64,000 nucleotides of DNA from Actinomycetota bacterium (GTDB lineage: Bacteria; Actinomycetota; AC-67). This document shows, one piece after another, positions 38,926 through 60,901 of the stretch; the first letter of the stretch is position 1, and each line of letters opens with the position of its first letter. The position numbers and the translations under genes were made by a program. Location: positions 3,959 to 67,958 of the forward strand of contig JBBDRM010000085.1 of assembly GCA_040905475.1 (NCBI GenBank), in the 5' to 3' direction. The notes beneath the pieces were generated by a model that was given only the letters and a program-made list of their open reading frames with translations, did no database searches and was not told the DNA's origin.

Positions 38926-39456
38926 ATGGAGCCGCAAGTGTTCGCCCTCGATGGGGAAGCCGGGGTCCGCGCCGCGTACCGGGCGCACGGCGCCGAGCTC
39001 TTCGGGTTCGCGCTGCGCGCGCTGAGGGATCCGGGGCTCGCCGAGGAGGCCGTGCAGGAGACGTTCCTGCGGGCGTGGCGAGCCGCCGATCGGTTCGACC
39101 CCGAGATCGCACCGCTGCGCGCCTGGCTGTACTCGATCATCCGCAACGTGGTGGTCGACCTCACCAGAGCGCGCGCGGCACGGCCGCAGATCGTGCAAAG
39201 CCCGACGGTGGTCGACCTCCGCGAGTCGGAGGGCGACCCGTTCGACCGGGCACTCGTCGCGTGGCAGGTCGAGGAGGCGCTGCGCAAGCTCGGCGAGGAC
39301 CACCGGCGCGTGCTGATCGAGACGTACTACCGGGCCAGGCCGTACGCGGAGGTCGCGGCGGAGCTGGGGATCCCCGAGGGGACCGTAAAGAGCCGCGTGT
39401 ACTACGCGCTGCGAGCGCTGCGGCTCACGCTGGAGGAGATGGGGTGGCAGGGATGA
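38926..39456 (+). CDS. ECF-subfamily RNA polymerase sigma-70 factor.
   Basis: Region 2 (ETFLRAWR...RAWLYSIIRNVVVD) and region 4 (YAEVAAELGIPEGTVKSR). Confidence 0.8.
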   Translation: MEPQVFALDGEAGVRAAYRAHGAELFGFALRALRDPGLAEEAVQETFLRAWRAADRFDPEIAPLRAWLYSIIRNVVVDLTRARAARPQIVQSPTVVDLRESEGDPFDRALVAWQVEEALRKLGEDHRRVLIETYYRARPYAEVAAELGIPEGTVKSRVYYALRALRLTLEEMGWQG

Positions 39457-40132: not shown

Positions 40133-41293
40133 ATGGATCTTCGCTACACCGACGAGCAGGAAGCGTTCCGGGCCGAGGTTCGCGCCTGGCTCCGCGCACA
40201 CGTTCCCAAGGAGCGTCTGCCGACCGTCGGCACCCGCGAAGGCTTCGACGCGCATCGCGCCTGGGAGCAGGAGCTCGGCCGCGCCGGGTACGGAGCTCTC
40301 CACTGGCCCGTGGAGTACGGCGGCCGCGGCGCCGACGTCGTGATGACGGCGATCTTCGAGGAGGAGTACGCGATCATCGAGGGTCCCCCGCGCATCACCG
40401 TTCTGGGACGCAACCTCATGGGCCCCACGCTGATGGTCCACGGGACGCCCGAGCAGAAGGACCGGTGGCTGTCGCGGATCCTGTCCGCCGACGACATCTG
40501 GTCGCAGGGTTTCTCCGAGCCCGACGCAGGAAGTGACCTCGCCGGGCTGAAGACGCGCGCCGTTCGCGACGGCGAAGACTTCATCGTCGACGGACAGAAG
40601 ATCTGGACCTCGTACGGAACGTTCTCCGACTGGATCTTCGCCCTCGTCCGGACCGATCCGGAAGCGCCACGCCACGCCGGCATCACGTTCCTCGCGATCG
40701 ACATGCGCTCCCCCGGCGTCGAGGCCCGGCCGCTGGTGCAGGTCGACGGCCGCGCCGGCTTCGCCGAGGTTTTCTTCACCGACGTTCGCGTGCCTGCGAC
40801 GCAGGTGATCGGCGAGGTCAACCGCGGCTGGGACGTCGCGATGGCGACCCTCGGCTTCGAGCGCGACGCCCCGTCCGCGCCCGCCGGCCGCTTCGAGCGC
40901 GACGTCGCCGAGCTGGGCTCGATCGCGCGGGCGCTGGGCCGCGATTCCGACGCAGGCGTCCGGGACACCATCGGGTCGCTGTACGCGCAGGCACTCGCGT
41001 ACCGGTGGCACACGATGCGCACGCTCACCCGGCTCGCGCGCGGCGAGCGGATCGGGCCCGAAGGCTCCGTGACGAAGGTGCTCTGGTCCGAGCTCGAGCG
41101 CGACACGTTCGCCGCCGGACGCGAGCTGCTCGGGCCGTACGGCGAGGTACTCTCGGACGAGGCCCCGCAGACGGACCCGCTCCGCTGGCATTCGAAGTAC
41201 TGGTTCTCGCGGGCCGCGACGATCTACGCCGGGACCAGCGAGATACAGCGCAACATCATCGCCGAGCGCGTGCTCGGCCTCCCTCGGAAGTAG
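40133..41293 (+). CDS. Acyl-CoA dehydrogenase (alpha-type subunit of a putative heteromeric ACAD).
   Basis: ACAD N-terminal, middle and C-terminal domains. Paralogous to 48631..49764. Confidence 0.8.
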   Translation: MDLRYTDEQEAFRAEVRAWLRAHVPKERLPTVGTREGFDAHRAWEQELGRAGYGALHWPVEYGGRGADVVMTAIFEEEYAIIEGPPRITVLGRNLMGPTLMVHGTPEQKDRWLSRILSADDIWSQGFSEPDAGSDLAGLKTRAVRDGEDFIVDGQKIWTSYGTFSDWIFALVRTDPEAPRHAGITFLAIDMRSPGVEARPLVQVDGRAGFAEVFFTDVRVPATQVIGEVNRGWDVAMATLGFERDAPSAPAGRFERDVAELGSIARALGRDSDAGVRDTIGSLYAQALAYRWHTMRTLTRLARGERIGPEGSVTKVLWSELERDTFAAGRELLGPYGEVLSDEAPQTDPLRWHSKYWFSRAATIYAGTSEIQRNIIAERVLGLPRK

Positions 41294-41298
41294 CCGCC

Positions 41299-42264
41299 GT
41301 GGATTTCGATTTCTCTCCCGAGCAGCTGGCCGTCCGCGACCTCGCGCGGGAGCTCTTCGAGAAGGAGTCGCCGCCGTCACGTCTGCGCGAGCTCTGGAGC
41401 GGTGCCGAGCGGGATCGATCGGTCTGGAAGGCGCTCGGCCAGGCGGGCCTGCTCGAGATCACGGACCCGGTCGACCTTGTGCTGGTGCTCGAGGAAGCGG
41501 GGCGCGCAGCGCTGCCCGAACCGATCGCGGAGACACTCGCGATCGCGGCGCCGGTCCTCGCCGAAGCCGGGAGCGATTGGGTCCCGCGCGTCGCGTCGGG
41601 TGAGGCGATCGTGGCCGTCCAGCTCGGCGGCGCGCCGTTCGTCGTCGACGCCGGCGACGCGGATCTGCTGCTGCTGGAGCGCGACGGCGAGCTCCACGCG
41701 CTTCCTCACGATGCGTTCACGGCGACCCCGGTCCAGTCCGACGACAAGGCTCGTCGTCTTTACGCGGTGAACGCGCACACCGGATCCGAGACGCGGATCG
41801 CGGGCGATGCCGGCGTCGCGCTCGATCGCGGAGCGGCAGCCGTGGCGGCGGTCCTCAACGGGATCTCGATGCGCATGCTCGAAATGACGCTGGAGCACGT
41901 CAAGACCCGAGAGCAGTTCGGGAAGCCGGTCGGCTCGTTCCAGGCGGTGAAGCACAAGCTGGCGAGCGCGCACGTGCGTGTGGAATCCGCGCGCGCGGCG
42001 GCCTGGTACGCCGCGTTCGCGATCGGAGCCGGGCTGCCCGACCGCTCGCTCGCGGCGTCGGTCGCCAAGGTCGTCGCCGCCGAGGCCGAGGCCATCGCGA
42101 ACGCTGAAGCGCTGCAGTGCCACGGCGGGATCGGTTTCACCTGGGAGCACGACCTGCACATGTGGATGAAGCGGGGGAAAGCGCTGGAAGCGTCCTTCGG
42201 CACCGCTGCCGAGCATCGCGCGCGCGTCGCGGCTCACGTTCTTTCGGAGCAGGCCGATGCCTGA
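41299..42264 (+). CDS. Acyl-CoA dehydrogenase family protein (beta-type partner subunit).
   Basis: GTG start 6 nt after the upstream stop. A shorter ACAD (321 aa) with the characteristic C-terminal FGKPVGSFQAVKHKLA motif. Confidence 0.7.
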   Translation: MDFDFSPEQLAVRDLARELFEKESPPSRLRELWSGAERDRSVWKALGQAGLLEITDPVDLVLVLEEAGRAALPEPIAETLAIAAPVLAEAGSDWVPRVASGEAIVAVQLGGAPFVVDAGDADLLLLERDGELHALPHDAFTATPVQSDDKARRLYAVNAHTGSETRIAGDAGVALDRGAAAVAAVLNGISMRMLEMTLEHVKTREQFGKPVGSFQAVKHKLASAHVRVESARAAAWYAAFAIGAGLPDRSLAASVAKVVAAEAEAIANAEALQCHGGIGFTWEHDLHMWMKRGKALEASFGTAAEHRARVAAHVLSEQADA

Positions 42265-43033
42265 GGCGCCTCCGTACCCGCCGGGCCGCTCGCTGCTCGA
42301 GGGCAAGACCGTGCTCGTCACCGCGGCCGCAGGAGCGGGCATCGGGTTCGCGACCGCGAAACGCTGCCTCGAGGAGGGCGCCCGCGTGGTCCTCTCCGAC
42401 AAGCACGAGCGGCGTCTGGTGGAGGCGTCCGATCGGCTGGCCGAACTCGGACGGGTCGCCTGCTCGATCCCTTGCGATGTCACATCACAGGACGATGTCG
42501 ACCGGTTGTTCCGCGGAGCCATCGAGGCGACCGGCGGGCTCGACGTCGTCGTGAACAACGCCGGGCTCGGCGGTACGAAGGACATCGCCGAGATGACCGA
42601 CGACGAATGGGCCGTCGTGATCGACATCTCTTTGAACGGAACCTTCCGGTGCACGCGAGCGGCGCTGCAGCACATGATCCCTCGGGGCGGCGGCGTGATC
42701 GTGAACCTCGGGTCGATCCTCGGCTGGCGAGCGCAGGCCGGACAGGGGCACTACGCGGCCGCGAAGGCCGGCGTCATGGCACTGACCCGAGCCGCCGCTA
42801 TGGAGGCAGCGCCGCACAACGTCCGCGTGAACTGCGTGGCGCCCTCGTTCGCGGAGACGCCGTTCCTGTCGAAAGTGGTCGCGGAGGAGACGCTGGCCGA
42901 GCTCCGCGCCCGCGAGGCGTTCGGCCGGGCGGCCGAGCCGTGGGAGGTCGCCAACGTGATCGTCTTCCTCGCGAGCGACTACTCCTCGTACATGACCGGA
43001 GAGGTCGTCTCGGTCAGCGCGCAACACCCCTAG
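42257..43033 (+). CDS. SDR-family oxidoreductase.
   Basis: Cofactor motif TAAAGAGIG. NAG motif. Y-x3-K (YAAAKAG). Confidence 0.8.
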   Translation: MPEAPPYPPGRSLLEGKTVLVTAAAGAGIGFATAKRCLEEGARVVLSDKHERRLVEASDRLAELGRVACSIPCDVTSQDDVDRLFRGAIEATGGLDVVVNNAGLGGTKDIAEMTDDEWAVVIDISLNGTFRCTRAALQHMIPRGGGVIVNLGSILGWRAQAGQGHYAAAKAGVMALTRAAAMEAAPHNVRVNCVAPSFAETPFLSKVVAEETLAELRAREAFGRAAEPWEVANVIVFLASDYSSYMTGEVVSVSAQHP

Positions 43034-43581: not shown

Positions 43582-43595
43582 TAGAACGTGTTCTA
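43582..43595. promoter_or_regulatory. KstR-type (TetR-family) operator-like palindrome TAGAACGTGTTCTA.
   Basis: Exact match to the TnnAACnnGTTnnA palindrome reported for mycobacterial KstR. It lies 14 nt upstream of the ATG of the LLM oxidoreductase gene. Confidence 0.5.
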
Positions 43596-43608
43596 TAGGG
43601 TGAGGCGC

Positions 43609-44730
43609 ATGGAATTCGGCATCTTCTTGCAGGGCCATGTGGCCGCGCGGAGCCTCGCCAAAGACCCCAACTTCGAGCACACCTCGCTCATGAACGACGT
43701 CGCGCTCGCGAAAGCCGCCGACGATTCGGGGTTCAAGTACATCTGGGTCTCCGAGCACCACTTCCTCGACGAATATTCGCACACGTCGGCGTCCGAGGTT
43801 TTCCTCGCCTACCTGGCCGGCGTCACGCAGCGGATCCACCTCGGCTCGGCGATCTGGAACATCTCCCCCGCCGTCAACCATCCCATCCGGGTGGCAGAGC
43901 GCGTGGCGATGATGGATCACGTCTCCGACGGCCGGTTCGAGTTCGGCGTCGGGCGCGGAGCCGGTTCGCACGAGGTGACCGGCTTCATGATCGAGAGCAC
44001 CGACGCCACGAAAGCGATGTTCGAGGAGACGTTCAAGGAGTTCGCGAAGATGTGGCGCCAGAACGAGTACTCGTTCAAGGGCGACTACTTCGAGGTTCCC
44101 CCGCGCAATGTCCTGCCGAAGCCCTGGCGCAAGCCGCACCCACCGATCTGGCAGGCGGCCGGCAACCCGCCGACCTACGAGAAGGCCGCGCGGTCGGGCG
44201 TCGGCGCGATCGGGTTCAACTTCTCGGCGGCGAAGGCGATGGCGCCCGTGGTCGAGGCGTACAAGAAGGCGATCCCCCAAGCCGAGCCGATCGGGGACTA
44301 CGTCAACGACAACGTGATGATCACGAACTCGGTCGTGTGCCTCGAGGACGGCCGAAAGGCGCGCGAGGTCGCCGCCGGGATGGGGAGCGGCCGCCTCCAG
44401 AGCCTCGTCTTCCGCTACCACGACACGTTCCCGAAGCCCGAGCACGTCCCGGCCTGGCCGAAGACGCTCCCCGAGCCCGACCTCGAGCAGGTCGAGTGGC
44501 GGGTCAAAGAGGGCTACATGCTCTGCGGTGACCCGGACGAGGTGCTCGAGCAGGTGCGCAAGTACGAGAGCGTGGGCTGCGACCAGGTCGTGTTCGGGCT
44601 ACCGATCTCGATGCCGATCGAGGCCGCGATCGAAACGGTCCGTCTCTTCGGCAAGCACGTCATCCCGAAGCTCGACCCCGACCCGGTCCACCGCACCACG
44701 CGCTTCCGCGACGCAGCGGCCGGCGCCTAG
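43609..44730 (+). CDS. LLM-class (luciferase-like) flavin/F420-dependent oxidoreductase.
   Basis: Start MEFGIFLQG with an AGGGTGAGG RBS. LLM motifs throughout. The track start (GTG at 43588) lies inside the operator. Confidence 0.75.
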   Translation: MEFGIFLQGHVAARSLAKDPNFEHTSLMNDVALAKAADDSGFKYIWVSEHHFLDEYSHTSASEVFLAYLAGVTQRIHLGSAIWNISPAVNHPIRVAERVAMMDHVSDGRFEFGVGRGAGSHEVTGFMIESTDATKAMFEETFKEFAKMWRQNEYSFKGDYFEVPPRNVLPKPWRKPHPPIWQAAGNPPTYEKAARSGVGAIGFNFSAAKAMAPVVEAYKKAIPQAEPIGDYVNDNVMITNSVVCLEDGRKAREVAAGMGSGRLQSLVFRYHDTFPKPEHVPAWPKTLPEPDLEQVEWRVKEGYMLCGDPDEVLEQVRKYESVGCDQVVFGLPISMPIEAAIETVRLFGKHVIPKLDPDPVHRTTRFRDAAAGA

Positions 44731-46128: not shown

Positions 46129-47643
46129 TCAGAGCATCGTCCGGAGCGCCTTGCGGTCGATCTTTCCGACCGGCGTCAGCGGGACGGCCGGCACGATGTT
46201 CACCACCCGCGGGTACTTGTAGCCACCGATCTTGCCCTTGGTGAAGGCGATCAGCTCCTCCGGCGTCACCTCCGCCCCCGGGTTCAGCGAAACGAACGCG
46301 ACGACCTCCTCGCCGAGCTTGGGGTCCTTGCGCCCGACGACCCCGGCGAGCGCGACCGCCGGGTGCTCGAGGAGGCAATCCTCGACGTCGCGGGGGAAGA
46401 CGTTGAAGCCGCCCCGGATGATCAGGTCCTTCTTGCGGTCGACGATCTTCAGATAGCCGTCCTCGTCGAACGTGCCGATGTCTCCGGTGTAGAGCCAGCC
46501 GTCCTTCAGGGTCGAGGCCGTCGCCTCGGGCGCCTTCCAGTAGCCCTGCATGACCCCGGGCGAGCGCGTCGTCACCTCACCGGGCTCGCCCGGCGCCGAC
46601 GGGGACCCGTCGTCGTTGCGCAGCACGACCTCGTAGCCGGGGATCACCTTGCCGACGGTCCCGAGCTTGGGGGCGTCGGGCGGATTCACCGAGATCACCG
46701 CGCCCGACTCCGTGCAGCCGTATCCCTCGCAGATCTTGACACCCGGGACGCGCCGCAGGAACTCCGCCGCGATCTCGGGAGCGAGCGGGGCCGCGCCGGA
46801 GGTTAGGTATCGCAGGGACGACAGGTCGTACTCCTCGAGCGGCTGGCCGAGCAGGATCTGGATCATCGACGGCACGACCGTCCCGCGCTGCACCTTCATG
46901 TCCTGGCTGAGACGCAGCCACTCGACCGGATCGAACCACTTCATCAAGATGCCCTCGCCGGGCTCCACGCTGTGCAGCGAGACGACGCTCACGATGAGCC
47001 CGAACGAGTGCGACAGCGGCAGCGGCACGAGCACGCGCGCGACGCCGGGGACGAACGAGGCCTCGTTGGCGGACTTCCCGCAGTACCAGAGGTTCTCGTG
47101 CGAGAGCATCACACCTTTGGCGCGCCCGGTCGTGCCTCCCGTGTACATCAGCGCCGCGAGATCGGAGTCGTCGCGGAGCACGATCTCGCCGGGCGCGGCG
47201 TCCTCGAGGGATCCCAATGAGATCACGCCGTCCTGCTCGGGCCCGAGCGAGATGATCCACTTCAGCGTCGAGACGCCCTCGGCGGCTTTGCGCACGTTGT
47301 CGAGGAACTCGGGGGTCGTGACGATCGCGGTGGCTTCCGAGTCCTCGAGGATCCGCCGGACCTCGTCGGGCGGGAGAAGGAAGATCAGCGGGGTAATCGC
47401 GGCGCCGGCGCTCCATAGCCCGCCGTAGACGATCCCGACCTCGGGACAGTTCGCCATGAGGACGGCCACCCGATCGCCGGGCGCGATCCCGAGCTCCCTG
47501 AAGCCGGTGCTGAGCTTTCGGGAGCGCTCGAAGAACTCGCCGGAGCGGTACCACTTGCCCTCGAAGAACAGCGACTCGCGATCGCCGTGCCGCTCGAACG
47601 ACTGCTCGCCGAGACGCGCCAGATTGTGTTCGCCCTTGGCCAT
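46129..47643 (-). CDS. fadD: Long-chain fatty-acid-CoA ligase (AMP-binding).
   Basis: Start MAKGEH with an AAGGGGAGGG RBS. AMP-binding motifs YTGGTTGRAKGV and GYGCTE. Confidence 0.8.
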   Translation of the reverse strand: MAKGEHNLARLGEQSFERHGDRESLFFEGKWYRSGEFFERSRKLSTGFRELGIAPGDRVAVLMANCPEVGIVYGGLWSAGAAITPLIFLLPPDEVRRILEDSEATAIVTTPEFLDNVRKAAEGVSTLKWIISLGPEQDGVISLGSLEDAAPGEIVLRDDSDLAALMYTGGTTGRAKGVMLSHENLWYCGKSANEASFVPGVARVLVPLPLSHSFGLIVSVVSLHSVEPGEGILMKWFDPVEWLRLSQDMKVQRGTVVPSMIQILLGQPLEEYDLSSLRYLTSGAAPLAPEIAAEFLRRVPGVKICEGYGCTESGAVISVNPPDAPKLGTVGKVIPGYEVVLRNDDGSPSAPGEPGEVTTRSPGVMQGYWKAPEATASTLKDGWLYTGDIGTFDEDGYLKIVDRKKDLIIRGGFNVFPRDVEDCLLEHPAVALAGVVGRKDPKLGEEVVAFVSLNPGAEVTPEELIAFTKGKIGGYKYPRVVNIVPAVPLTPVGKIDRKALRTML

Positions 47644-47680
47644 GTGCGACCGCCCTCCCCTTGATCGAGGTAGGGACAGG

Positions 47681-48625
47681 CTACAGAGCGATGCGCTCCC
47701 GGTGCCATGCGGCGGTGCCCCAGGCATGCGCGAGCGCCGTCGCCTTGTTGAGCCACAGATGCAGATCGTGCTCGTGGGTGTAGCCGATCGCGCCGTGCAC
47801 CTGGAGCGACGCGCGACACGCGTTCATCGCCGCGTCGGACGCATAAGACTTAGCCATCGAGACGTACCGCGAGCGCTGCTCGTCGCCGGTCGCGACCGAC
47901 CAGGCAGCCCGATACACGAGCGGCCGGGCGAACTCGAGCCCGAGCAGCGCGTCGGCGAGCAGGTGCTTGACCGCCTGGAACGAGCCGATCGGCTTGCCGA
48001 ACTGGTGACGCTCCTTCGCGTACGTCGCACCCAACTCGATGACGCGGGCGGCGATCCCGCACAGGACGGCCGCAGCCGCGAGGGCTCCCCGGTCGAACGC
48101 CGCGTCGTCGATCCCGGCGCCGTCGAATGCGAACAGGCGCCGGGTGGCGTCGATCGACGGGAGCCGCTCGAGGTGCAGATCGCTCGGCAGGACCGGGCCG
48201 TTCGGGGTCAGGATCAGGTCCGCGACATGCGCGTCGGCCAGCGTCACGCCGCTCATCGCGACGGTCAGGATCGCGTCGCCCGCCGCCACCCGCGGCAGCC
48301 ACTCCCGGGCGAGATCGCCCCCGATCGCGCGCAGCATCGGAACGCCGACGGCGGCCGTCTCGAGCAGCGGTTCGGGCAGCGCGGCACGCCCCGCCTCTTC
48401 CAGCAGGAGCACGAGGTCGATCTCCTCTCCGCCGAGGCCGCCGAATTCCTCGGGCACGGTGAGCCCGACAACGCCGAGCCCGGCGAGGCCCTTCCACAGC
48501 TTCGGCGAGCGGCCGGTCGGATCCGTCGTCATCGCGCGCACGTGCTCGGGCGGACACTCCTTCGCCAGGAAGTCGCGAACGGCGCGCTGGAACGCGCGCT
48601 GCTCGTCGGTGAACGTGAAGCGCAT
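47681..48625 (-). CDS. Acyl-CoA dehydrogenase family protein (beta-type partner).
   Basis: Start MRFTFTDEQRAF, 6 nt after the upstream stop. 314 aa. FGKPIGSFQAVKHLLA motif. Confidence 0.7.
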   Translation of the reverse strand: MRFTFTDEQRAFQRAVRDFLAKECPPEHVRAMTTDPTGRSPKLWKGLAGLGVVGLTVPEEFGGLGGEEIDLVLLLEEAGRAALPEPLLETAAVGVPMLRAIGGDLAREWLPRVAAGDAILTVAMSGVTLADAHVADLILTPNGPVLPSDLHLERLPSIDATRRLFAFDGAGIDDAAFDRGALAAAAVLCGIAARVIELGATYAKERHQFGKPIGSFQAVKHLLADALLGLEFARPLVYRAAWSVATGDEQRSRYVSMAKSYASDAAMNACRASLQVHGAIGYTHEHDLHLWLNKATALAHAWGTAAWHRERIAL

Positions 48626-48630
48626 CGCCC

Positions 48631-49764
48631 TCAGCCTCGGGGGAGGCCGAGCACGCGCTCGGCGACGATGTTGCGCTGGATCTCGTTCGTGCCGGCGTAG
48701 ATCGGCCCGGCGAGCGAGAACAGGAACCCGTCGGTCCACGGCCCGGCCAACTCGGCTTCCTCGCCGAGCACGGACAACGCGGTTCGATGCATGCGCTGAT
48801 CCATCTCGGACCAGAAGATCTTGTTCAGGCTCGTCTCGGCGCCGACCTCGCCGCCGGCCAGGAAATGCGAGACGGTCCAGTAGGTGTGCAGCCGGTACGC
48901 CTCGGTGTCGGTGACCGCGCGGGAAACCTCGTCGCGTAGGGACGCCGGGAGCGCAGCCGCGCGGGACCTATACAGCTTCACGAGCCGGGCGGCGGTCGCC
49001 ATGAAACGGCCCGGCGAGCGGAGCACCACGCCGCGCTCGAACCCGGTCGTCGACATCGCGATCTTCCAGCCCTCGCCGCGCCCGCCGAGCGTGTTGGCAA
49101 CCGGAACCTGCACGTCGTCGAGGAAGACTTCCGCGAAGCCCGCCTCGCCGTCGAGCTGCGCGATCGGACGGACCGTGACGCCGGGCGCGTCGAGCGGCAC
49201 GAGGAGGTAGGACAGCCCGCGATGCCGTTCCGAGCCGGGCTCGGTCCGGAAGATGCCGAACATCCAGTCGGCGAACGCTCCGCGCGAGCACCACGTCTTC
49301 TGCCCGCTCAGAACCCACTCGTCCCCGTCGAGCGTCGCGCGCGAGGTCAGCGACGCCAGGTCGCTCCCCGAGTTCGGCTCCGACCAGCCTTGGCACCAGA
49401 CCTCGTCGGACCGCGCGATCTTCGGCAGGTACCGCGCCTTCTGCTCGGGCGTCCCAAACTCGAGCAGCACCGGCCCGAGCAAGAAGATCCCGTTCTGATT
49501 CACGCGGCCCGGCGCGCCGGAGCCCCAGTACTCCTCCTCGAAGATCAGCCATTCGATGAGCCCGGCGCCGCGACCGCCGTACTCCTCGGGCCAGTTGACG
49601 ACCGCCCAACCGGCGTCGGCGAGGCGTCGCTCCCACTCGCGGTGCGCTTCGAAGCCTTCGGCGGTGTCGAACGACGGCAGTGGCTCGCGCGGGACGTTCG
49701 CAGAAAGCCAGGCGCGCGCCTCCGAGCGGAAGGCGTCCTGGGCCGGGGTGAAGGAAAGGTCCAC
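48631..49764 (-). CDS. Acyl-CoA dehydrogenase (alpha-type).
   Basis: GTG start. N-terminus MDLSFTPAQDAFRSEARAWLSANVP is paralogous to 40133..41293. Confidence 0.8.
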   Translation of the reverse strand: MDLSFTPAQDAFRSEARAWLSANVPREPLPSFDTAEGFEAHREWERRLADAGWAVVNWPEEYGGRGAGLIEWLIFEEEYWGSGAPGRVNQNGIFLLGPVLLEFGTPEQKARYLPKIARSDEVWCQGWSEPNSGSDLASLTSRATLDGDEWVLSGQKTWCSRGAFADWMFGIFRTEPGSERHRGLSYLLVPLDAPGVTVRPIAQLDGEAGFAEVFLDDVQVPVANTLGGRGEGWKIAMSTTGFERGVVLRSPGRFMATAARLVKLYRSRAAALPASLRDEVSRAVTDTEAYRLHTYWTVSHFLAGGEVGAETSLNKIFWSEMDQRMHRTALSVLGEEAELAGPWTDGFLFSLAGPIYAGTNEIQRNIVAERVLGLPRG

Positions 49765-49778
49765 GGGAGGCTAGAGTG

Positions 49779-49799
49779 TATCTGACGGGTCGTCAGATA
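49779..49799. promoter_or_regulatory. 21-bp perfect palindrome TATCTGACG-GGT-CGTCAGATA (candidate repressor operator).
   Basis: Seen directly, in the divergent promoter region between the ACAD gene (minus, start 49764) and the DUF1326 gene. Its core TCTGACGGGTCGTCAGA is repeated at 52317..52333. Confidence 0.5.
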
Positions 49800-49879
49800 C
49801 CTTCGGGCGTCCGCTCGACCGGCGCCTCTACTCGGTCGTATGGTTGGAAGGGCACGGGCGACCGAGGGAGGCGCAGATC

Positions 49880-50461
49880 ATGGCCTACACCATCAAGGGC
49901 GAGTACGTCGTCACCTGCAACTGCAATCTGATCTGTCCCTGCGGTGTCGACGGAACACCTACGTCGAAGGACGGCCAATGCCACGGCGGGCAGGTGCTCC
50001 ATGTCGCCGAGGGGACCAAGGATGGCGTCGACCTCGCCGGCGTCGACATCGGCTGGGTGTACCACATCCCCGGCAACGTAACGGGGGGAAATTGGACCAT
50101 GGTGCTCGTTCTCGACCCGAGCGTCTCCGACGAGCAAGTGAAAGCGGTCGAAGACATCATCCAGGGCAAGGACGGCGGACCGTTCGCAGACTTCGCGCCG
50201 CTGATCGGCACCTTCAAACCGACAGAACGCGCCCCAGTCTCGTTCACCGGCGGTAAAGAAGCGAAGGGCTCGATCGGTTCGAGCTCATTGGGCTTCACGC
50301 CCGTCCTCGGTGCGGACGGGAACCCGACGACCATCAAGAACGCGATGTTCGGATTCGCGCCCGAGTACGAGATCGGCAAGGGATCCGGCTCGGTCACGGC
50401 CGGGGGCATCTCGTACGACGCGATCTACGGCGAGCACGCGGCCTTCGAGTTCGCCAGCTAG
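49880..50461 (+). CDS. DUF1326-family protein.
   Basis: Start MAYTIKGEYVVTCNCNLICPC with a GAGGGAGG RBS. Cys cluster typical of DUF1326. Confidence 0.55.
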   Translation: MAYTIKGEYVVTCNCNLICPCGVDGTPTSKDGQCHGGQVLHVAEGTKDGVDLAGVDIGWVYHIPGNVTGGNWTMVLVLDPSVSDEQVKAVEDIIQGKDGGPFADFAPLIGTFKPTERAPVSFTGGKEAKGSIGSSSLGFTPVLGADGNPTTIKNAMFGFAPEYEIGKGSGSVTAGGISYDAIYGEHAAFEFAS

Positions 50462-50521
50462 GACGACGCCACAGCGTTACCCCGCGCTAGCATCTCCGGG
50501 CGCTCGACCGGGGAGGCTGTC

Positions 50522-51586
50522 ATGACGTATCGCGTCATCCAATGGAGCACGGGGAACGTCGGCCGTTACGCGCTTCGCGGGATCATCAACCATCCAGAGC
50601 TCGATCTCGTCGGGCTCTGGGTGCACTCCGAGAAGAAGGCCGGCATGGATGCCGGCGAGCTGGCCGGCGTTGGGCCCGTCGGCGTCATCGCGACCAACGA
50701 CGCCGAGGCGCTCCTCGCGCTCGACGCCGACGTCGTCGTCTACAACGCGACCGGCGACCTCCGTCCGCACGAGGCGGTCGAGGACACCGTCCGCATCCTC
50801 GATTCCGGCAAGAACGTCGTCGGAACGGCTTTGGTCCCGATGGTCTACCCGCCGAGCGCGCCCGAGCAGATGCGCGACCCGATCCAGGAGGCGTGCCTGC
50901 GGAACAACGTGTCGTGCTTCACGTCGGGCATCGACCCCGGCGTCGCGAACGACCTGCTGCCGCTCGTGATCACGGGGCTCGCCGAGCGGATCGACTCGGT
51001 GCGCGTGCAGGAGATCCTCAACTACGCGACCTACGACCAGCCCGAGGTGCTCTTCCACACTATGGGCTTCGCGAAGCCGCTCGATCACACGCCCATCCTT
51101 CTCCTGCCTGGCGTGCTGTCGCTCGCGTGGGGCTGCATCGTCAACGTCATCGCCGCCGGACTCGGCGTCGAGCTCGACGAGATCCGCGAGGTCGTCGTCG
51201 AGAAGGTCCCCGCGCCCGAGACGTTCGAGGTCCCCTCGGGAACCGTCGAGAAGGGCACGATGGCGGGATTGCGGTTCGAGATCCAAGGCATCGTCGGCGG
51301 CGAGGTGCGCATCGTCGTCGAGCACATCACCCGCCTGCGCGAGGACATCGCGCCGCACTGGCCGCCGCCGCCGGGCAAAGGCGGCTACAAGGTGCGCCTC
51401 GAGGGGTCGCCGACGATCACGCTGACCCTCGAGATGGAAGGCGACGGCGGCGACGAGAACTCGGGCGGATTGATCGTGACGGCCACGCGGCTGCTGAACT
51501 CGATCCCGGCCGTCGTGAACGCGCCGCCGGGCGTCCTGAGCGCCCTCGATCTGCCGCTGATCACGGGCAAAGGCTTGATGCGCTGA
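50522..51586 (+). CDS. NAD(P)-binding oxidoreductase, DapB-like (dihydrodipicolinate-reductase-like N-terminal fold).
   Basis: VIQWSTGNVGRYALRGII Rossmann motif. Confidence 0.5.
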   Translation: MTYRVIQWSTGNVGRYALRGIINHPELDLVGLWVHSEKKAGMDAGELAGVGPVGVIATNDAEALLALDADVVVYNATGDLRPHEAVEDTVRILDSGKNVVGTALVPMVYPPSAPEQMRDPIQEACLRNNVSCFTSGIDPGVANDLLPLVITGLAERIDSVRVQEILNYATYDQPEVLFHTMGFAKPLDHTPILLLPGVLSLAWGCIVNVIAAGLGVELDEIREVVVEKVPAPETFEVPSGTVEKGTMAGLRFEIQGIVGGEVRIVVEHITRLREDIAPHWPPPPGKGGYKVRLEGSPTITLTLEMEGDGGDENSGGLIVTATRLLNSIPAVVNAPPGVLSALDLPLITGKGLMR

Positions 51587-51603
51587 CCACCGGTCCCCGC
51601 CGC

Positions 51604-52005
51604 TTAGTGCGGATGATGGATCTTGAGCGGCGAATGCCGCGCGATCATGTCGAAGTCGCGGTCGTTGTGGAGGATCTCCGCTCCGGCGCGGATCGCTGGG
51701 ACGGCGACGAGACAGTCGGTCATCCCCCGCAACGTCTCCCCTGCCCGGCGGCACGACTGGAAGATGTATGCCGCGGCTTCGAAGTCGGCGAGGCCCGCAA
51801 GCGTGAGCATGGGGAGGTTGACGAGCCGCTCGCGGAGCACGCCCCGAGGAGGTCCCGGTTCCGCGCCTGCGAGAAGCTCCATCACGACGATCTCGGTGAC
51901 CGCCACCTGCACGTCGCGCGCAAACAAGCGCTCGAGTGCACGCCCAGCCGGGTGATCCGTGCCGCGAAGATGTTCGATCCACGCGGAGCTGTCGGCGACG
52001 ATCAC
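51604..52005 (-). CDS. vapC: PIN-domain toxin VapC.
   Basis: GTG start overlaps the vapB stop. PIN acidic residues (VADSSAW...E...D...NDRDF). Confidence 0.7.
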   Translation of the reverse strand: MIVADSSAWIEHLRGTDHPAGRALERLFARDVQVAVTEIVVMELLAGAEPGPPRGVLRERLVNLPMLTLAGLADFEAAAYIFQSCRRAGETLRGMTDCLVAVPAIRAGAEILHNDRDFDMIARHSPLKIHHPH

Positions 52006-52223
52006 TTCTTAGGGTGTGCTCGGCCGCGGATCTCGTCCAGGTCCCCCGGCCAGCCCATCCCTTGCAAGTCGAGCATGTCGCGCGGTCGGTACCGGCGTTT
52101 CCCGACGAGCGATTCCAGCGCGAACTGAACGGCCGCCCGCTTGGTCGGCAGGTCGTAGAGCTTCATGACCTTGGCCACCAGCTCATCGTCGATCACGATG
52201 TTCGTTCGCCCCATGATCTGCAT
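52002..52223 (-). CDS. vapB: VapB-family antitoxin.
   Basis: Start MQIMGRTNIVIDDELVAKVMKLYDL with a GAGGTG RBS. The track start 52280 lacks an RBS. Confidence 0.6.
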   Translation of the reverse strand: MQIMGRTNIVIDDELVAKVMKLYDLPTKRAAVQFALESLVGKRRYRPRDMLDLQGMGWPGDLDEIRGRAHPKK

Positions 52224-52316
52224 GATACACCTCGATACACATCGCCCTTCCTGGTAGGCGAGCCTATGGCCCTGGATCATGGAGTCCAGAGCAGCAACCA
52301 GCGCGATCGGTTGAAA

Positions 52317-52333
52317 TCTGACGGGTCGTCAGA
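52317..52333. promoter_or_regulatory. Second copy of the palindrome TCTGACGGGTCGTCAGA.
   Basis: Seen directly. It lies 13 nt upstream of the GTG start of the DUF35 / SCP2-thiolase / thiolase operon and is divergent from vapBC. Confidence 0.5.
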
Positions 52334-52345
52334 AAGAATGACGAC

Positions 52346-52783
52346 GTGCCCGAAGCCCCTTCCATCACCCCGGCTCCTGCCGTCGACGGCTGGTTCACCA
52401 CCGGCGCCGATCCGCACCTGATCGGCGTCCGCTGTCCGGCCTGCGGGACGTACGCGTTCCCGCCCGAGATCTTCTCCTGCCCGAACCCGCGGTGCGGGTC
52501 CTCGGACCTCGAGCGCGTGGCGCTGTCGCGTCGAGGCCGGGTCTGGTCGTTCTCGGTCAACCACTACGCCGCTCCCCCGCCGGCGCTATCCCCCGAGCCG
52601 TTCGAGCCGTACGCGGTCGCCGCGGTCGAGCTGCCCGAGGAGCGGATAGTTGTGCTCGGTCGCGTGGCCGACGGCGTCGCCTTGGATGAGCTCCAGATCG
52701 GCTCCGAGATGGAGATCGTCGTCGAGCCGATCATCCCGGGCGCCGACGAGCTCGTCTGGAAATGGAAGCCGGTGGGAGCTTGA
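52346..52783 (+). CDS. DUF35 OB-fold / Zn-ribbon protein (thiolase/aldolase partner subunit).
   Basis: Zn-ribbon CPACG...CPNPRCGS followed by an OB-fold. Immediately followed by an SCP2-type thiolase-like gene. Confidence 0.7.
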   Translation: MPEAPSITPAPAVDGWFTTGADPHLIGVRCPACGTYAFPPEIFSCPNPRCGSSDLERVALSRRGRVWSFSVNHYAAPPPALSPEPFEPYAVAAVELPEERIVVLGRVADGVALDELQIGSEMEIVVEPIIPGADELVWKWKPVGA

Positions 52784-53973
52784 GCGCGGGTCGCGTCGCG
52801 GTCGCCGGCGTTGGGATGCACCCCTGGGGCAAGTGGGGGAACAACTTCGTCTCGTACGGCGTCGTCGCGGCGCGCGCGGCGCTGGCAGACGCGGGCATCG
52901 AGTGGACCGACGTCCAGTTCATCGCGGGCGGCGAGACGGTGCGCAACGGCTACCCCGGCTACGTCGCCGGGGCGACCTTCGCGCAGGCGCTCGGCTGGTC
53001 GGGCGCGCAGGTCGCGACCTGCTACGCCGCGTGCGCATCGGGCGCGCAGGCGATCGACGTCGCGCGAGCGCGGATCCTTGCGGGGCTGTGCGACGTCGCA
53101 TTGGTGGTCGGATCGGACACCACGCCCCGAGGCTTCCTCGCGCCGTCGGGCGGCGAGCGGCGGACGGATCTCGACTGGCTGCGGTTCCGTCTCGTCGGGG
53201 CCACCAACCCGACGTACTTCGCGCTGTACGCGCGCCGGCGCATGGAGCTATACGGCGAGACCGAGGCCGACTGGGCGCAAGTGAAGGTCAAGAACGCGCG
53301 GCATGGGTTGAACAACCCGAACGCCCGCTACCGCAAGGAGGTCTCTGCGGACGAGGTGCTCGCGAGCGCGATGGTCTCCGACCCGCTGCGGCTGCTTCAG
53401 ATCTGCACGACCTCCGACGGCGCCGCGGCCGTGGTCCTCACATCGCTCGAGTACGCGAAGCGGCACGGGGTCCCAGACCCGGTCAAGGTCGCGGCCGTGT
53501 CGACGGTCACGCCGACCTACCCGCAGACGGCCATCGAGATGCCGTATCTATCGACCGACTCGGCGGCCGCCGTCGCGCCTCCCGAACGCCTGTTCCGCGA
53601 CGCGATCGCCCACGCGGCGCTGGAAGAAGCGGGTATCGGGCCCGAGGATCTCTCGCTCGCGGAAGTTTATGACCTATCCACGGCGTTGGAACTTGATTGG
53701 TACGAGAACATCGGCCTGTGCAAGGAGGGCGAGGCTGCGCGGCTGCTGCACGACGGCGACACGACGCTCGGCGGGCGCGTGCCGGTGAACCCGAGCGGCG
53801 GTCTGGCATGCTTCGGCGAGGCGGTTCCCGCACAGGCGATCGCGCAGGTGTGCGAGGTGACCTGGCAGCTTCGCGGGCAGGCCGAGGGCAGACAGGTGGC
53901 GAATGCAAACGTGGGACTGACCATCAACCAGGGGCTGTTCGGACACGGCTCCTCCGTGATCTGTGTGAGGTGA
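52762..53973 (+). CDS. Thiolase-like lipid-transfer protein (SCP-x / Ltp-type).
   Basis: RVAVAGVGMHPWGK N-terminus and an active-site Cys region (CYAACASG). Overlaps the DUF35 gene by 22 nt. Confidence 0.7.
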   Translation: MEAGGSLSAGRVAVAGVGMHPWGKWGNNFVSYGVVAARAALADAGIEWTDVQFIAGGETVRNGYPGYVAGATFAQALGWSGAQVATCYAACASGAQAIDVARARILAGLCDVALVVGSDTTPRGFLAPSGGERRTDLDWLRFRLVGATNPTYFALYARRRMELYGETEADWAQVKVKNARHGLNNPNARYRKEVSADEVLASAMVSDPLRLLQICTTSDGAAAVVLTSLEYAKRHGVPDPVKVAAVSTVTPTYPQTAIEMPYLSTDSAAAVAPPERLFRDAIAHAALEEAGIGPEDLSLAEVYDLSTALELDWYENIGLCKEGEAARLLHDGDTTLGGRVPVNPSGGLACFGEAVPAQAIAQVCEVTWQLRGQAEGRQVANANVGLTINQGLFGHGSSVICVR

Positions 53974-53976
53974 GCG

Positions 53977-55125
53977 ATGGCTGAGGCATACATCATCGAC
54001 GCGGCGCGTACGGCGGTCGGCAAGCGCGGCGGCGCGCTCTCGAAGGTGCACCCCGCCGACCTGGGCGCACACATCCTGAAAGCGATCGTCGAGCGCAGCG
54101 GCGTGGACCCGAACACGGTCGACGACGTCATCTTCGGCTGCATCGACCAGGTCGGCCCGCAGGCCGGCGACATCGCGCGCACCTCTTGGCTCGCGGCCGG
54201 GTTCCCCGAGGACGTGCCCGGCGTCACGATCGACCGCCAATGCGGCTCCTCGCAGCAGGCGGTTCACTTCGCGGCACAGGCCGTGATGAGCGGGACGATG
54301 GACGTCGTGATCGCCGGCGGTGTCCAGAACATGTCGCTGATCCCGATCGGCTCGGCCGGACGCGTCGGCAAGGACATGGAGCTCCCACACACCTTCCACG
54401 GGTCCGAGGGATGGGTGAAGCGCTACAACACCGAACCCGTCAGCCAGTTCTACGCCGCCGAGAAGATCGCGGAGAAGTGGAACATCAGCCGCCGGGACAT
54501 GGAAGAGTTCGCGCTCGAGTCGCACACCCGGGCTCGCCGCGCGCAGGCCGAAGGACGGTTCGACCGCGAGATCGTGCCGTTCGGCGAGTTCACGGTGGAC
54601 GAGGGCCCGCGCGACACCTCGCTCGAGAAGATGGCTTCGCTGGATCTACTGCCCGGCGCGAAGACGCTGACCGCGGCGGTCTCGTCGCCGACCAACGACG
54701 CGGCGTCGGCGGTCCTCATCGCGAACGAGGCGGCGGTCAAGCGGAACGGCTGGACGCCGCGCGCGCGCGTCCACTTCCTCGGCGTCCGCGGCGCCGATCC
54801 GATCTACATGCTCACCGCGCCGATCAACGCGACGTTCCACGCGCTCGAGAAGACCGGCATGTCGCTCGACGACATCGACCTGGTCGAGATCAACGAGGCG
54901 TTCGCGCCGGTCGTGCTCGCGTGGCAGAAGGAGACGGGGGCCGACCTGGGTCGCGTCAACGTGAACGGCGGCGCGATCGCGCTGGGTCACCCGATCGGCG
55001 CGACCGGGACGCGACTGATGACGACGCTGCTGCACGAGCTCGAGCGGTCGGGCGGCCGCTACGGGCTCCAGACGATGTGCGAGGGCGGCGGCCAGGCGAA
55101 CGCCACGATCATCGAACGCCTCTAG
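53977..55125 (+). CDS. fadA: Acetyl-CoA C-acyltransferase (thiolase II, FadA-like).
   Basis: IIDAARTAVGKRGG. Catalytic Cys in QCGSSQQA. NVNGGAIALGHPIGATG. CEGGG. Confidence 0.85.
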   Translation: MAEAYIIDAARTAVGKRGGALSKVHPADLGAHILKAIVERSGVDPNTVDDVIFGCIDQVGPQAGDIARTSWLAAGFPEDVPGVTIDRQCGSSQQAVHFAAQAVMSGTMDVVIAGGVQNMSLIPIGSAGRVGKDMELPHTFHGSEGWVKRYNTEPVSQFYAAEKIAEKWNISRRDMEEFALESHTRARRAQAEGRFDREIVPFGEFTVDEGPRDTSLEKMASLDLLPGAKTLTAAVSSPTNDAASAVLIANEAAVKRNGWTPRARVHFLGVRGADPIYMLTAPINATFHALEKTGMSLDDIDLVEINEAFAPVVLAWQKETGADLGRVNVNGGAIALGHPIGATGTRLMTTLLHELERSGGRYGLQTMCEGGGQANATIIERL

Positions 55126-55648: not shown

Positions 55649-57070
55649 TCAGGCGCGGTCGGCGGCCTTCAGCAGCTCATCGAGGGATCCATGCAGGCCG
55701 TCGGTGATCCGGTGAACATCGGGGAGCAGCGACGTGCACGAGATCGCTGCGAAGTTCATCTGGTCGATGTAGCTCCACACGGTGACGTTCAAGCCTATGC
55801 CCTCGAGGATCGGACCGACCGAGTAGAGCGCCGCGAGCTTCGCCCCGGCGATGTACAGAGGGGCGCGCGGCCCGGGCACGTTCGAGACGACCAGGTTGAT
55901 CGGCGGCCGATGCTTCGCCGCCAGCCCGCGGCGCGAGTAGGTACGCATGAACCAGTTGAACGGCCGAGGCGGCGCATACTCGAGCCAGCTCGCCATCGTG
56001 TCGGCACCCAGGATGTTCTGCACGATCTTCGCTTCCTTCGTGATCTCGTGGATCGCGCGCAAGCGTTCGACGGGGTCGGCGATGTCGGTACACAGCGAGG
56101 TGAACATGTTCGAGACCTTGTTTCCACCCAGCCGCGCCACGTCGTCGGGCTTGTCGGTGGCGACCGGAACGCCGGCGATCAAGGGCCGGTCGAGCCTCTC
56201 GCCGCGCTCCGCGAGGTAGCGCCGCACCGAGCTGCCGACGACGTCGAGGACGACGTCGTTGAGCGTGACGTCGAACGCGGTCTTGACCCGCTTGAAGTCG
56301 TCGAGAGCGAGCGAGGTCGTCGCGAAGGCGCGGCTCGCAGAGAGTGGCCCGTTGAACGAGGTTCTCGGCGCGTCGCGGATCGGGCGGGGCGGCCGGATCG
56401 TGGTCTGCTCGCGGTGACGCGCGAGGGCCTTCGCGCCGGCGCGAGTGCGCTTATACAGGGCAGGAACCAGTCGCAACGCCGCTCGCTTGTCGCTCCGGCC
56501 GGAGCGCGCAAGCGCTCGCGCGTCGGGGATCGGCTCGCCGCTCCACGGCTCGGCTGGAGGCTCCGGGTCGGCCGGCTCAGGGTCGACGCTGAGCACGTTC
56601 GCGAGAAGGGCGGCCGCGGCAACGCCGTCGGCGGCCGCGTGGTGGATCTTCGCGACGAACGCGACGTGGCCGTCCTCCAGTCCCTCGAGCGCCCACAGCT
56701 CCCAGAGCGGCTTGTCGCGGTCGAGTTGCGAGCTCGCGATCTTCCCGATGATCGCATCCATCTCCCGCGCGCCGCCGGGGGCCGGAACCGTCGTGCGCTT
56801 GAGATGCTTGTCGAGCGAGAAGTTGGGATCCTCGATCCACACCGGGTGGTGGATGCCCCGGGGAAGATCCACGATCCGCCGGCGGAACGGTGGAAGCAGG
56901 TGAAGACGCTTGGCGAGCTCCTCGCGGAAGCGCTCGAACGAGTAACCGCCGGGGACGTTGACCGGATCGATGACGCCGATCTTGAGCGTGTGCATGTGGA
57001 GCGTGGGCGTCTCCATGTAGAGGAAGCCCGCGTCCAGACCCGTCATGCGCTCCACGAGCGTCAGTGTCAC
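55649..57070 (-). CDS. Wax ester synthase / diacylglycerol acyltransferase (WS/DGAT).
   Basis: Catalytic HHxxxDG motif (HHAAADG). About 473 aa. Confidence 0.8.
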   Translation of the reverse strand: MTLTLVERMTGLDAGFLYMETPTLHMHTLKIGVIDPVNVPGGYSFERFREELAKRLHLLPPFRRRIVDLPRGIHHPVWIEDPNFSLDKHLKRTTVPAPGGAREMDAIIGKIASSQLDRDKPLWELWALEGLEDGHVAFVAKIHHAAADGVAAAALLANVLSVDPEPADPEPPAEPWSGEPIPDARALARSGRSDKRAALRLVPALYKRTRAGAKALARHREQTTIRPPRPIRDAPRTSFNGPLSASRAFATTSLALDDFKRVKTAFDVTLNDVVLDVVGSSVRRYLAERGERLDRPLIAGVPVATDKPDDVARLGGNKVSNMFTSLCTDIADPVERLRAIHEITKEAKIVQNILGADTMASWLEYAPPRPFNWFMRTYSRRGLAAKHRPPINLVVSNVPGPRAPLYIAGAKLAALYSVGPILEGIGLNVTVWSYIDQMNFAAISCTSLLPDVHRITDGLHGSLDELLKAADRA

Positions 57071-59644: not shown

Positions 59645-60901
59645 CTAGCAGGCGGCCGCGCGCCCCAGCAGCAGCGCGCGCTCGCGGACGTTGAGGGTGA
59701 GCGACGCGGCGCGCTCGAACTCCGCGCGAGCTTCGTCGAAACGGCCGAGCTTGGCCAGGAGGTCACCGCGAACGCTCGGCAAGAGGTGGTAGCCCTTCAG
59801 AGCCGGCTCCTCGGTCAGCGCGTCCACGACCTCGAGGCCCGCCGCAGGACCGAACGCCATCCCAACCGCCACCGCGCGATTCAGCTCGACGACCGGCGAC
59901 GGCGTGATCTGAGCAAGCGCTGCGTAGAGCGCCGCTATCCGGGGCCAGTCCGTCTCCTCGGGAGTGCGCGCTCTCGCGTGACACGCCGCGATCGCCGCCT
60001 GCAGCGCGTACGGACCGCTCGCGCCGCCGAGTTCCTCGGCGCGGTCGAGCGCCGCGAGACCGCGACGGATGAGGAGCTGATCCCAGCGCGCACGGTCTTG
60101 ATCGAGCAATAAGATCGGCTCTCCCGCCGGCCCGGTGCGCGCCCGCAAACGCGACGCTTGGATCTCCATCAGGGCGACGAGGCCGTGCACCTCCGGTTCC
60201 TTCGATGCCAGCCCGGCCAGGATCCGGCCGAGACGAAGAGCGTCCTCGCAGAGCGCCGGCCGCACCCAGTCCTCGCCTGCGGTCGCCGAGTAGCCCTCGT
60301 TGAAGATGAGGTAGACAACCTCGAGCACCGACGAAAGGCGGGGTGCTAGCTCGTCGCCGCTCGGGACCTCGAACGGGACGTGCTCGTCGGCGAGGGTCCG
60401 CTTGGCGCGAACGATCCGCTGCGCGACCGTCGGCTCAGGAACCAGGAACGCCCGCGCGATCTCCTCGGTCGTCAGACCGCCGAGCAACCGGAGCGTGAGC
60501 GCGACACGCGCTTCCGTGGAGAGCACCGGATGGCATGCGGTGAACACCAGCCGGAGGAGGTCGTCACCGATGTCGTCGTCGATCGCGGCGTCGAGGTCCG
60601 CCTCGCCCGTCTCCTGCCGGATAGCGATCTCGTTACCGAGCTCCTCGCGTTTCCGTTCGAGGCGCTCGTTGCGGCGGAACAGGTCGATCGCACGGTGCTT
60701 CGCGGTGGCCATGAGCCATGCTCCAGGGTTGTCCGGGATCCCCGACTCCGGCCAGCGCTCGAGCGCCGCGACGAGCGCGTCCTGCGCGAGATCCTCGGCG
60801 ACGCCGACGTCGCGGACCATGCGTGCGAGGCCGGCGATGAGCTTGGCGGACTCGATCCGCCAGACCGCATCGATGGCACGACGTGGATCGGGAGCCGTCA
60901 C
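59645..60901 (-). CDS. ECF42-like sigma factor with a C-terminal TPR-like extension.
   Basis: Sigma regions 2 and 4, plus an extension of about 200 aa. It is encoded downstream of two DGPF/YciI-like genes, the context described for group ECF42. Confidence 0.7.
   Translation of the reverse strand: MTAPDPRRAIDAVWRIESAKLIAGLARMVRDVGVAEDLAQDALVAALERWPESGIPDNPGAWLMATAKHRAIDLFRRNERLERKREELGNEIAIRQETGEADLDAAIDDDIGDDLLRLVFTACHPVLSTEARVALTLRLLGGLTTEEIARAFLVPEPTVAQRIVRAKRTLADEHVPFEVPSGDELAPRLSSVLEVVYLIFNEGYSATAGEDWVRPALCEDALRLGRILAGLASKEPEVHGLVALMEIQASRLRARTGPAGEPILLLDQDRARWDQLLIRRGLAALDRAEELGGASGPYALQAAIAACHARARTPEETDWPRIAALYAALAQITPSPVVELNRAVAVGMAFGPAAGLEVVDALTEEPALKGYHLLPSVRGDLLAKLGRFDEARAEFERAASLTLNVRERALLLGRAAAC

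Follow-up and report, generated by a model that had tools for sequence, protein, structure and literature searches.

A recurrent 17-bp inverted repeat at promoters of an actinobacterial catabolic cluster and the TetR_C_38 subfamily as its candidate regulator

The 64-kb stretch of actinobacterial DNA analysed here (the window) contains a catabolic gene cluster in which the 17-mer TCTGACGGGTCGTCAGA occurs twice on the + strand. Exact matches were found at 49781-49797 (site 1), in the divergent intergenic region between an acyl-CoA dehydrogenase gene (ACAD-alpha, minus strand) and a DUF1326 gene (plus strand), and at 52317-52333 (site 2), in front of a DUF35-Ltp-thiolase operon, and no third exact copy is present. 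On the sequence evidence, the 17-mer is a real regulatory DNA site that extends from Streptomyces to Acidimicrobiia. We further propose, with a probability of roughly 80%, that its cognate regulator is a TetR protein of the TetR_C_38 subfamily, because the neighbourhoods of orthologs, an enrichment in metagenomic loci and a divergent branch of the subfamily all carry sites.

The first-pass annotation of this DNA had reported an identical 17-mer at two promoter-proximal positions and had judged the repeat very unlikely to be due to chance, and both statements were borne out. The count of the 17-mer at ≤3 mismatches was matched by 0/100 dinucleotide-preserving shuffles of the window, and the relaxed core CTGAC-N7-GTCAG recovered the same two sites only (0.22 expected). 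The description as a perfect palindrome did not hold, as the element consists of two inverted 7-bp arms, TCTGACG and CGTCAGA, separated by three nucleotides (7+3+7); this centre, GGT, is asymmetric and is the same in both copies and in identical orientation. The 21-bp extension at site 1 is real: the arms grow there to 9 bp, TATCTGACG/CGTCAGATA, giving the 21-mer TATCTGACGGGTCGTCAGATA at 49779-49799. The flanks of the two copies are otherwise unrelated apart from one extra shared base. Both sites lie close to start codons, as annotated, although the GTG of ACAD-alpha (49764, minus strand) is 16 nt from site 1 and that of DUF35 (52346) 12 nt from site 2, rather than 15 and 13 nt.

The sole exact match to DNA of the window, which stems from an uncultured actinomycete, was a Logan contig of 1.6 kb; Logan run SRR27977661 contains an identical fragment. 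ACAD-alpha orthologs at 95-68% identity are abundant in metagenomes and in metagenome-assembled genomes (MAGs) of Actinomycetota. We compared three relatives on long contigs, L003, L004 and L005, whose ACAD-alpha proteins are 88, 81 and 78% identical to that of the window. All three carry the arms TCTGACG/CGTCAGA unchanged, 15-18 nt ahead of the ACAD start, with diverged flanks and a variable centre. A second copy is found 12-14 nt upstream of DUF35 in L003 and L004, where the block GGTTGAAA-palindrome-AAsAATGA is invariant and the sequence upstream of the block is unrelated. The reading as a promoter-proximal operator was thus upheld, both by conservation within diverged flanks and by the position of site 2 as the spacer of a sigma-70-type promoter, described below. 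The two L003 sites (5159-5175 and 9969-9985) share the rare centre GGT/ACC in direct orientation, as in the window, and site 1 of L004 and L005 has the symmetric centre GAC, which turns it into an 8+1+8 palindrome without mismatch. The common GGT centre might reflect gene conversion (homogenisation) between the two sites.

Between the two window sites lies a vapBC module, and VapB antitoxins bind palindromic sequences at the promoters of their own genes. The copies might accordingly be direct repeats produced by insertion of the 2.5-kb DUF1326-DapB-vapBC segment or of vapBC alone, or the palindrome might be a VapB operator; the identity of both copies, including the asymmetric centre and the orientation, would agree with such an origin. 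However, L004 carries both sites without vapBC, and for this reason we rejected the insertion-duplication origin and the VapB operator, which we regard as barely credible. In addition, many motif loci lack vapBC over the stretch that was examined, no toxin-antitoxin module adjoins site 1 in the window, the flanks share just the single base noted above, and DUF1326 and the DapB-like gene are ancestral members of the operon. In L004 the site comes immediately after the DapB-like gene, and DUF35 comes next.

The module is also missing from L005 and from a JGI contig at 94% identity, and in these relatives the operon is contiguous from DUF1326/DapB-like to thiolase. As judged from gene order, the ancestral layout joined (DUF1326)-DapB-like-DUF35-Ltp-thiolase in a single operon transcribed divergently from the ACAD pair, and vapBC is a later lineage-specific insertion upstream of an internal promoter and outside the regulatory unit, since the relatives have the contiguous operon without it. 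The earlier placement of vapBC between the two sites was correct as to position, and the module does not belong to the regulatory design. The interval from the ACAD promoter to DUF35 is a hot spot of toxin-antitoxin insertion, with one vapBC in the window and none in L004 and L005; in L003, positions 5171-9953 hold four PIN-domain genes, a VapB gene, a DUF6364 gene and a second, truncated DUF35 copy (6838-7188).

We then scanned one genome per species (185,579 species genomes) for the pattern TCTGACGNNNCGTCAGA, which returned at least 120 loci; the counts that follow are among the matches listed. Actinomycetota accounted for 98/120 loci, with about 50 in Streptomyces and allied cultured actinomycetes, 32 in Acidimicrobiia and 16 in other actinobacterial MAGs, and 22 loci were non-Actinomycetota. 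Complete genomes that carry the motif include those of Aquihabitans sp. G128 (NZ_CP077604.1) and Streptomyces sp. NBC_00829 (NZ_CP108867.1). Among the actinobacterial sites, 66/99 were intergenic and 56/99 lay within 150 nt of a start codon, mostly at 3-50 nt; 6/22 were intergenic outside the phylum. Such a distribution is not that of a repetitive extragenic palindromic (REP)-like family lying mostly outside promoters, which the first-pass annotation had named as the finding that would speak against its reading. The gene families transcribed away from the sites were ACADs (12) and Ltp or DUF35-Ltp (7), with a luciferase-like monooxygenase at a conserved Streptomyces locus downstream of sites (12), followed by amidohydrolases, short-chain dehydrogenases/reductases (SDRs), family III CoA-transferase, Zn-dependent dehydrogenases and AMP-ligases. 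In several Streptomyces loci a gene of the Ltp-type family begins a short distance after the site, and the window Ltp is 70-75% identical to Ltp proteins encoded close to motif sites in that genus. The promoter-proximal placement and the coherent gene set therefore indicate a regulon operator rather than a dispersed repeat.

The same question was approached from the side of nucleic-acid structure. A dispersed repeat of the REP type or the miniature inverted-repeat transposable element (MITE) type, or an RNA or DNA hairpin serving as a terminator, processing site or 5'-untranslated-region element, would account for the good RNA fold of the site 1 region (z = -5.8), for the position of L004 site 2 between two genes of one operon, and for a related long palindrome with symmetric changes just past a stop codon in L046. 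Nevertheless, the 64-kb window holds only two copies, with unrelated flanks, and the sites are promoter-proximal beside coherent gene families. No terminator was called at site 1 or site 2 and a T-run follows neither, Rfam gave no match, and the RNA fold of site 2 was not significant and used other pairings. Across 73 degenerate sites, arm changes were one-sided in 103 cases vs 8 compensated, and the sequence itself, beyond pairing, is conserved across classes. At its unbiased positions, the profile built from 57 regulator-anchored sites, aTCTGACGs-n-sCGTCAGAt, reveals a further A/T pair flanking the 17-mer (each at about 70%), and its centre reads S-N-S. These results favour a half-site sequence read by a protein rather than a structure, since changes are one-sided, terminators and Rfam matches are lacking and the site 2 fold is weak; a repeat or hairpin is very unlikely. 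A promoter for an extracytoplasmic function (ECF) sigma factor was also considered as a reading of the motif and dropped, because a symmetric palindrome with equivalent arms misfits a -35/-10 pair.

Protein recognition at these positions would interfere directly with transcription. A promoter scan of 49650-52450 gave TTGAAA-17-AAGAAT as its sole sigma-70-like match (0.2 expected), which forms the predicted DUF35-Ltp-thiolase promoter on the + strand (52311..52339), with the -35 hexamer at 52311-52316 and the -10 hexamer at 52334-52339. The site 2 palindrome coincides exactly with the 17-bp spacer, and both hexamers are kept in L003 and L004. The DUF35 GTG (52346) lies 6 nt past the -10 element, so the transcript is probably leaderless, and a Shine-Dalgarno sequence is not visible. 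Site 2 thus fills the promoter spacer of what appears to be a leaderless gene, and repression therefore fits. At site 1, the -10-like hexamer TACACT (49775..49780, minus strand) abuts the palindrome towards ACAD, with 10 nt left to the GTG (49764), and the same place is taken by TAAACT in L003 and TACACT in L004, 9-10 nt before the start codon; it is a putative ACAD promoter element. On the opposite strand, TAGAGT (49772-49777) precedes the palindrome, and from its position the DUF1326 transcript would presumably start inside site 1.

We propose that the two 17-mers would be operators for a homodimeric TetR_C_38 (PF19352) repressor encoded elsewhere in the genome, with each helix-turn-helix (HTH) reading one half-site of the profile. 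Blocking of RNA polymerase is the usual mode of TetR repressors. A repressor on site 2 would exclude RNA polymerase from the DUF35-Ltp-thiolase promoter. Site 1 abuts the ACAD -10-like element and would overlie the expected start region of the DUF1326/DapB-like transcript, so that a single site could silence both transcripts. Release of the repressor would be brought about by an intermediate of the acyl-CoA pathway, as for KstR, KstR2 and FadR-type TetR proteins. The TetR gene of relatives is the downstream member of an operon with AMP-dependent ligase and SDR genes, and this arrangement suggests that the ligand may be a product of that ligase. The data show the sites, their conservation, their position at promoters and their statistical association with TetR_C_38 genes, some of which have sites in their own promoters; that the repressor physically binds, which sign the regulation has and what the ligand is are what we infer in this scheme.

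To define the candidate regulator, an iterated TetR hidden Markov model (HMM) was run over the matches listed, and only six TetR genes were found in all loci. Three of the six (L021, L024 and L046, from three lineages) belong to one subfamily with the N-terminus DGRVxGRR...TRQRLLD...AGTSPATFYQYF. The L046 protein, from Actinomadura xylanilytica, contains the Pfam domains TetR_N and TetR_C_38 (PF19352). In the PDB it matches EthR best, and there just the HTH (E = 2.6e-5), and the KstR/KstR2 structures are not in the match list; it is therefore no close homolog of KstR or KstR2. Five motif variants lie within 3 kb around the L046 TetR gene: one overlaps the TetR start codon, another overlaps the start codon of the next gene, for an ADP-forming acyl-CoA ligase, two precede an amidohydrolase gene, and one lies inside a longer palindrome past the TetR stop codon.

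Orthologs of the L046 protein, at 57-60% identity, occur throughout Streptomyces, and the HTH (VIDVAR.AGTSPATFYQYF) does not vary across an alignment that reaches down to 37% identity. In Yinghuangia (L128), a 1-mismatch site lies between a divergent enoyl-CoA hydratase gene and an SDR-TetR operon, and in two Streptomyces loci (L126 and L127) a 1-mismatch site lies about 43 nt before a nearby Ltp gene. We next examined 80 metagenomic loci anchored on TetR_C_38 homologs (467 kb) for sites at ≤2 mismatches. The results showed 54 sites around the 80 homologs vs 1.1 in shuffles. A site was present 48-161 nt upstream of the TetR start in 13/80 loci, and in many others it was 2.3-4.8 kb upstream. 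The divergent TetR branch includes P0336 (Acidimicrobiales MAG, NCBI), and L078 carries an exact site. In L209, L210 and L211 the TetR gene ends a conserved AMP-ligase-SDR-TetR operon with an exact site in the promoter region of each; one of these three loci comes from an Acidimicrobiales MAG, and L210 also has a 1-mismatch site 2 nt before a DUF35-Ltp-thiolase operon, the same target as window site 2. TetR genes with a site in their own promoter region are thus those of L046, L128, L209, L210 and L211 and of the 13 metagenomic loci.

The regulator itself was expected outside the window in the first-pass annotation, and within the window neither the iterated local HMM search for TetR genes nor tblastn with five TetR_C_38 proteins gave anything credible. 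The tblastn matches at 55.6-56.2 kb (best E = 0.003) were set aside as noise because they overlap an intact WS/DGAT gene in inconsistent frames. The only regulatory genes that Pfam revealed among about 40 window open reading frames (ORFs) were those for ECF sigma factors (38926-39456; 59645-60901) and for a histidine kinase (33541-35283). A single LuxR-type response regulator (about 32830-33774, on the minus strand), but again no TetR, came from local seed searches of the window, which were the sole screen for some ORFs in 1-28 kb. The small recurrent neighbours of the listed sites were also considered as regulators and discarded, as they encode a membrane protein, NUDIX, GNAT, M15 peptidase, PNPOx and isochorismatase proteins instead.

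Several points weigh against assigning the motif to a TetR_C_38 repressor. Besides the lack of a TetR gene in the window, the iterated HMM found no TetR within the 8-kb block in most of the listed scan loci, so the link to the regulator rests on the statistics from the regulator-anchored loci. The -10 elements are weak matches to consensus, gene calls in the fetched loci came from a rough caller based on GC content at third codon positions, and the taxon proportions of the scan describe the matches listed, a subset of unknown ordering. In L046, about 60 nt after the TetR stop codon, positions 5064-5098 form a perfect palindrome with 16-bp arms, GCGCTTGTATCTGATGcccCATCAGATACAAGCGC, whose core is operator-like with symmetric C-to-T changes in both arms; the half-site model does not require it, and it may be a terminator, a second site class, or both.

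The scarcity of nearby TetR genes would also be expected if the motif were the operator of another DNA-binding protein, of a different TetR group or of the GntR, IclR or MarR type, with the TetR_C_38 genes as regulon members. These genes do lie inside operons of the same catabolic gene types, and co-occurrence therefore cannot part regulator from target. Yet no other transcription-factor family is recurrent near the listed sites, and in many lineages the TetR start codon is either overlapped by a site or preceded by one at 48-161 nt, which is the usual pattern of autoregulation. The recognition helix is invariant together with an invariant operator, and a palindrome of 17-19 bp with half-sites of about 7 bp is the typical format of a TetR operator. 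We consequently hold a different regulator to be unlikely and retain the TetR_C_38 protein as the candidate.

KstR (Rv3574) and KstR2 (Rv3557c) are TetR repressors of the mycobacterial/rhodococcal cholesterol regulons, with many sites and a CoA-thioester ligand. The system described here resembles them in its short palindromic operators, often at divergent promoters, and in its ACAD, Ltp/DUF35, thiolase and CoA-ligase genes. It differs in the operator sequence: the KstR consensus is TnnAACnnGTTnnA, as against TCTGACG-N3-CGTCAGA here, and the two window sites fail the KstR match; the KstR2 motif, AnCAAGnnCTTGnT, is likewise unlike it. By these comparisons, the system works like the KstR/KstR2 regulons but is not a member of them. 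The sole KstR-type match in the window is one perfect TAGAACGTGTTCTA at 43582-43595 (0.08 expected), which overlaps the GTG of a luciferase-like monooxygenase gene (43588-44730). The claim of a second regulon distinct from KstR is supported by the place of this single box elsewhere in the cluster and by the association of the motif with TetR_C_38. Streptomyces relatives of the monooxygenase (about 55% identical) bear a TCTGACG box instead of the KstR box, and this difference suggests that the regulator was swapped between lineages at the monooxygenase gene.

In M. tuberculosis, the regulon of Mce3R likewise includes a pair of ACAD genes together with genes for a luciferase-like monooxygenase and an SDR. 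The sites to which Mce3R binds as a pseudo-dimer are asymmetric, non-palindromic and 25 bp long (PMC11667970), in contrast to the symmetric 17-mer. Mce3R-like double-TetR genes lie 2.6 kb from exact sites in L073 (1617-2927) and L121 (about 300-1500), which are Actinomycetota/Acidimicrobiales MAGs, and the two proteins are 85% identical to each other. A double TetR of this type was dropped as the regulator because its operator is asymmetric and 25 bp long and because such genes were near only 2/120 sites among the matches listed.

Two further TetR proteins from the literature are of interest. KstR3 (Mn_4965) of Mycolicibacterium neoaurum represses the atf1-chsH4-chsE6-kstR3 'HBC' operon, and its operator is not reported in that paper (PMC10398937). 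It resembles the present subfamily in being a TetR protein encoded in an operon with Ltp-type aldolase/thiolase, DUF35 and ACAD, the gene types that flank TetR_C_38 and the motif here; the gene order differs, in a comparison made by description only. The proteins called 'KstR3' in the Nocardioides and Saccharopolyspora papers were set aside, being cholate-cluster regulators with a different palindrome, TCCCGGTSACCGGGA. SCO4421 of S. coelicolor is a TetR regulator located close to afsK (SCO4423) and upregulated during development (PMC3878966). That paper reports that its deletion (strain K319) had no phenotype, describes neither operator nor regulon, and gives its function as unknown (PMC3878966). 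As the Streptomyces TetR_C_38 orthologs in L126 and L127 lie two genes from an afsK-like PQQ-repeat Ser/Thr kinase, SCO4421 appears by synteny to be the S. coelicolor member of the subfamily. Searches of the literature with sequence strings gave primer matches only, and the literature search, with subscription-only papers and regulon databases outside it, found no description of this operator. The operator-regulator pair, conserved across two classes of Actinomycetota, therefore appears to be undescribed.

The window genes around the sites were identified with Pfam, and additionally with NCBIfam for the DapB-like gene and Ltp. Target operon 1 (47681..49764, minus strand) consists of ACAD alpha (48631-49764) and ACAD beta (47681-48739), and an AMP-dependent ligase gene (46129-47727) follows on the same strand; the order ACAD alpha/beta-then-ligase is also found in L003. 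Divergent from ACAD on the + strand are DUF1326 (49880-50461) and a DapB/DAP_DH-like gene for an oxidoreductase resembling 2,4-diaminopentanoate dehydrogenase (50522-51586). The PIN-domain vapC (51604-52005) and vapB (52002-52280 as the longest ORF, with its true start probably at about 52226) lie on the minus strand. Target operon 2 (52346..55125, plus strand) comprises DUF35 (52346-52783), the Ltp-type thiolase-like protein (52762-53973; NCBIfam PRK06059 'lipid-transfer protein') and thiolase (53977-55125).

Other features of the window were observed beside this cluster. The WS/DGAT wax-ester/triacylglycerol synthase gene (55649-57070) lies beside the DUF35-Ltp-thiolase operon and is kept in L003, L004 and L005, and a WS/DGAT gene is also found near the TetR_C_38 gene in L210; this neighbourhood hints that the catabolic module is tied to storage-lipid metabolism. 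The ECF sigma factor gene at 38926-39456 adjoins a second ACAD-pair/SDR/monooxygenase operon (ACAD 40133-41293, SDR 42257-43033), and the same arrangement is seen in L004 (17727-18916), with an additional zf-HC2/RskA anti-sigma gene. The ECF sigma factor is possibly an extra layer of control on the cluster. Finally, the region 22000-26000 has a G+C content of 0.61-0.63 vs 0.65-0.71 elsewhere and ORFs with weak third-position GC bias, and the one ORF tested there (22211-22948) had no Pfam match; the region may be acquired DNA.

Taken together, we judge the odds to be a little better than even that these sites belong to an undescribed, phylum-wide regulon. In such a regulon, one TetR_C_38 repressor (a group that appears to include SCO4421 and possibly KstR3) would act through an operator that is near-invariant from Streptomyces to Acidimicrobiia. 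It would control a beta-oxidation module of the branched, alicyclic or steroid-side-chain type, made up of ACAD alpha/beta, DUF35-Ltp-thiolase, luciferase-like monooxygenase, amidohydrolases and CoA ligases, in parallel to KstR and in some lineages in its place. For lipid- or steroid-like catabolic genes that are widespread in soil, freshwater and wastewater Actinomycetota and whose control was unknown, the analysis supplies a concrete operator together with a candidate family of regulators. A TetR subfamily that had been known by its Pfam C-terminal domain alone thereby acquires a testable function, and the results indicate that a single cluster can be connected to two different TetR regulons. 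The motif may be used to predict regulon members in genomes and MAGs and, once the ligand is identified, to build inducible promoters or biosensors.

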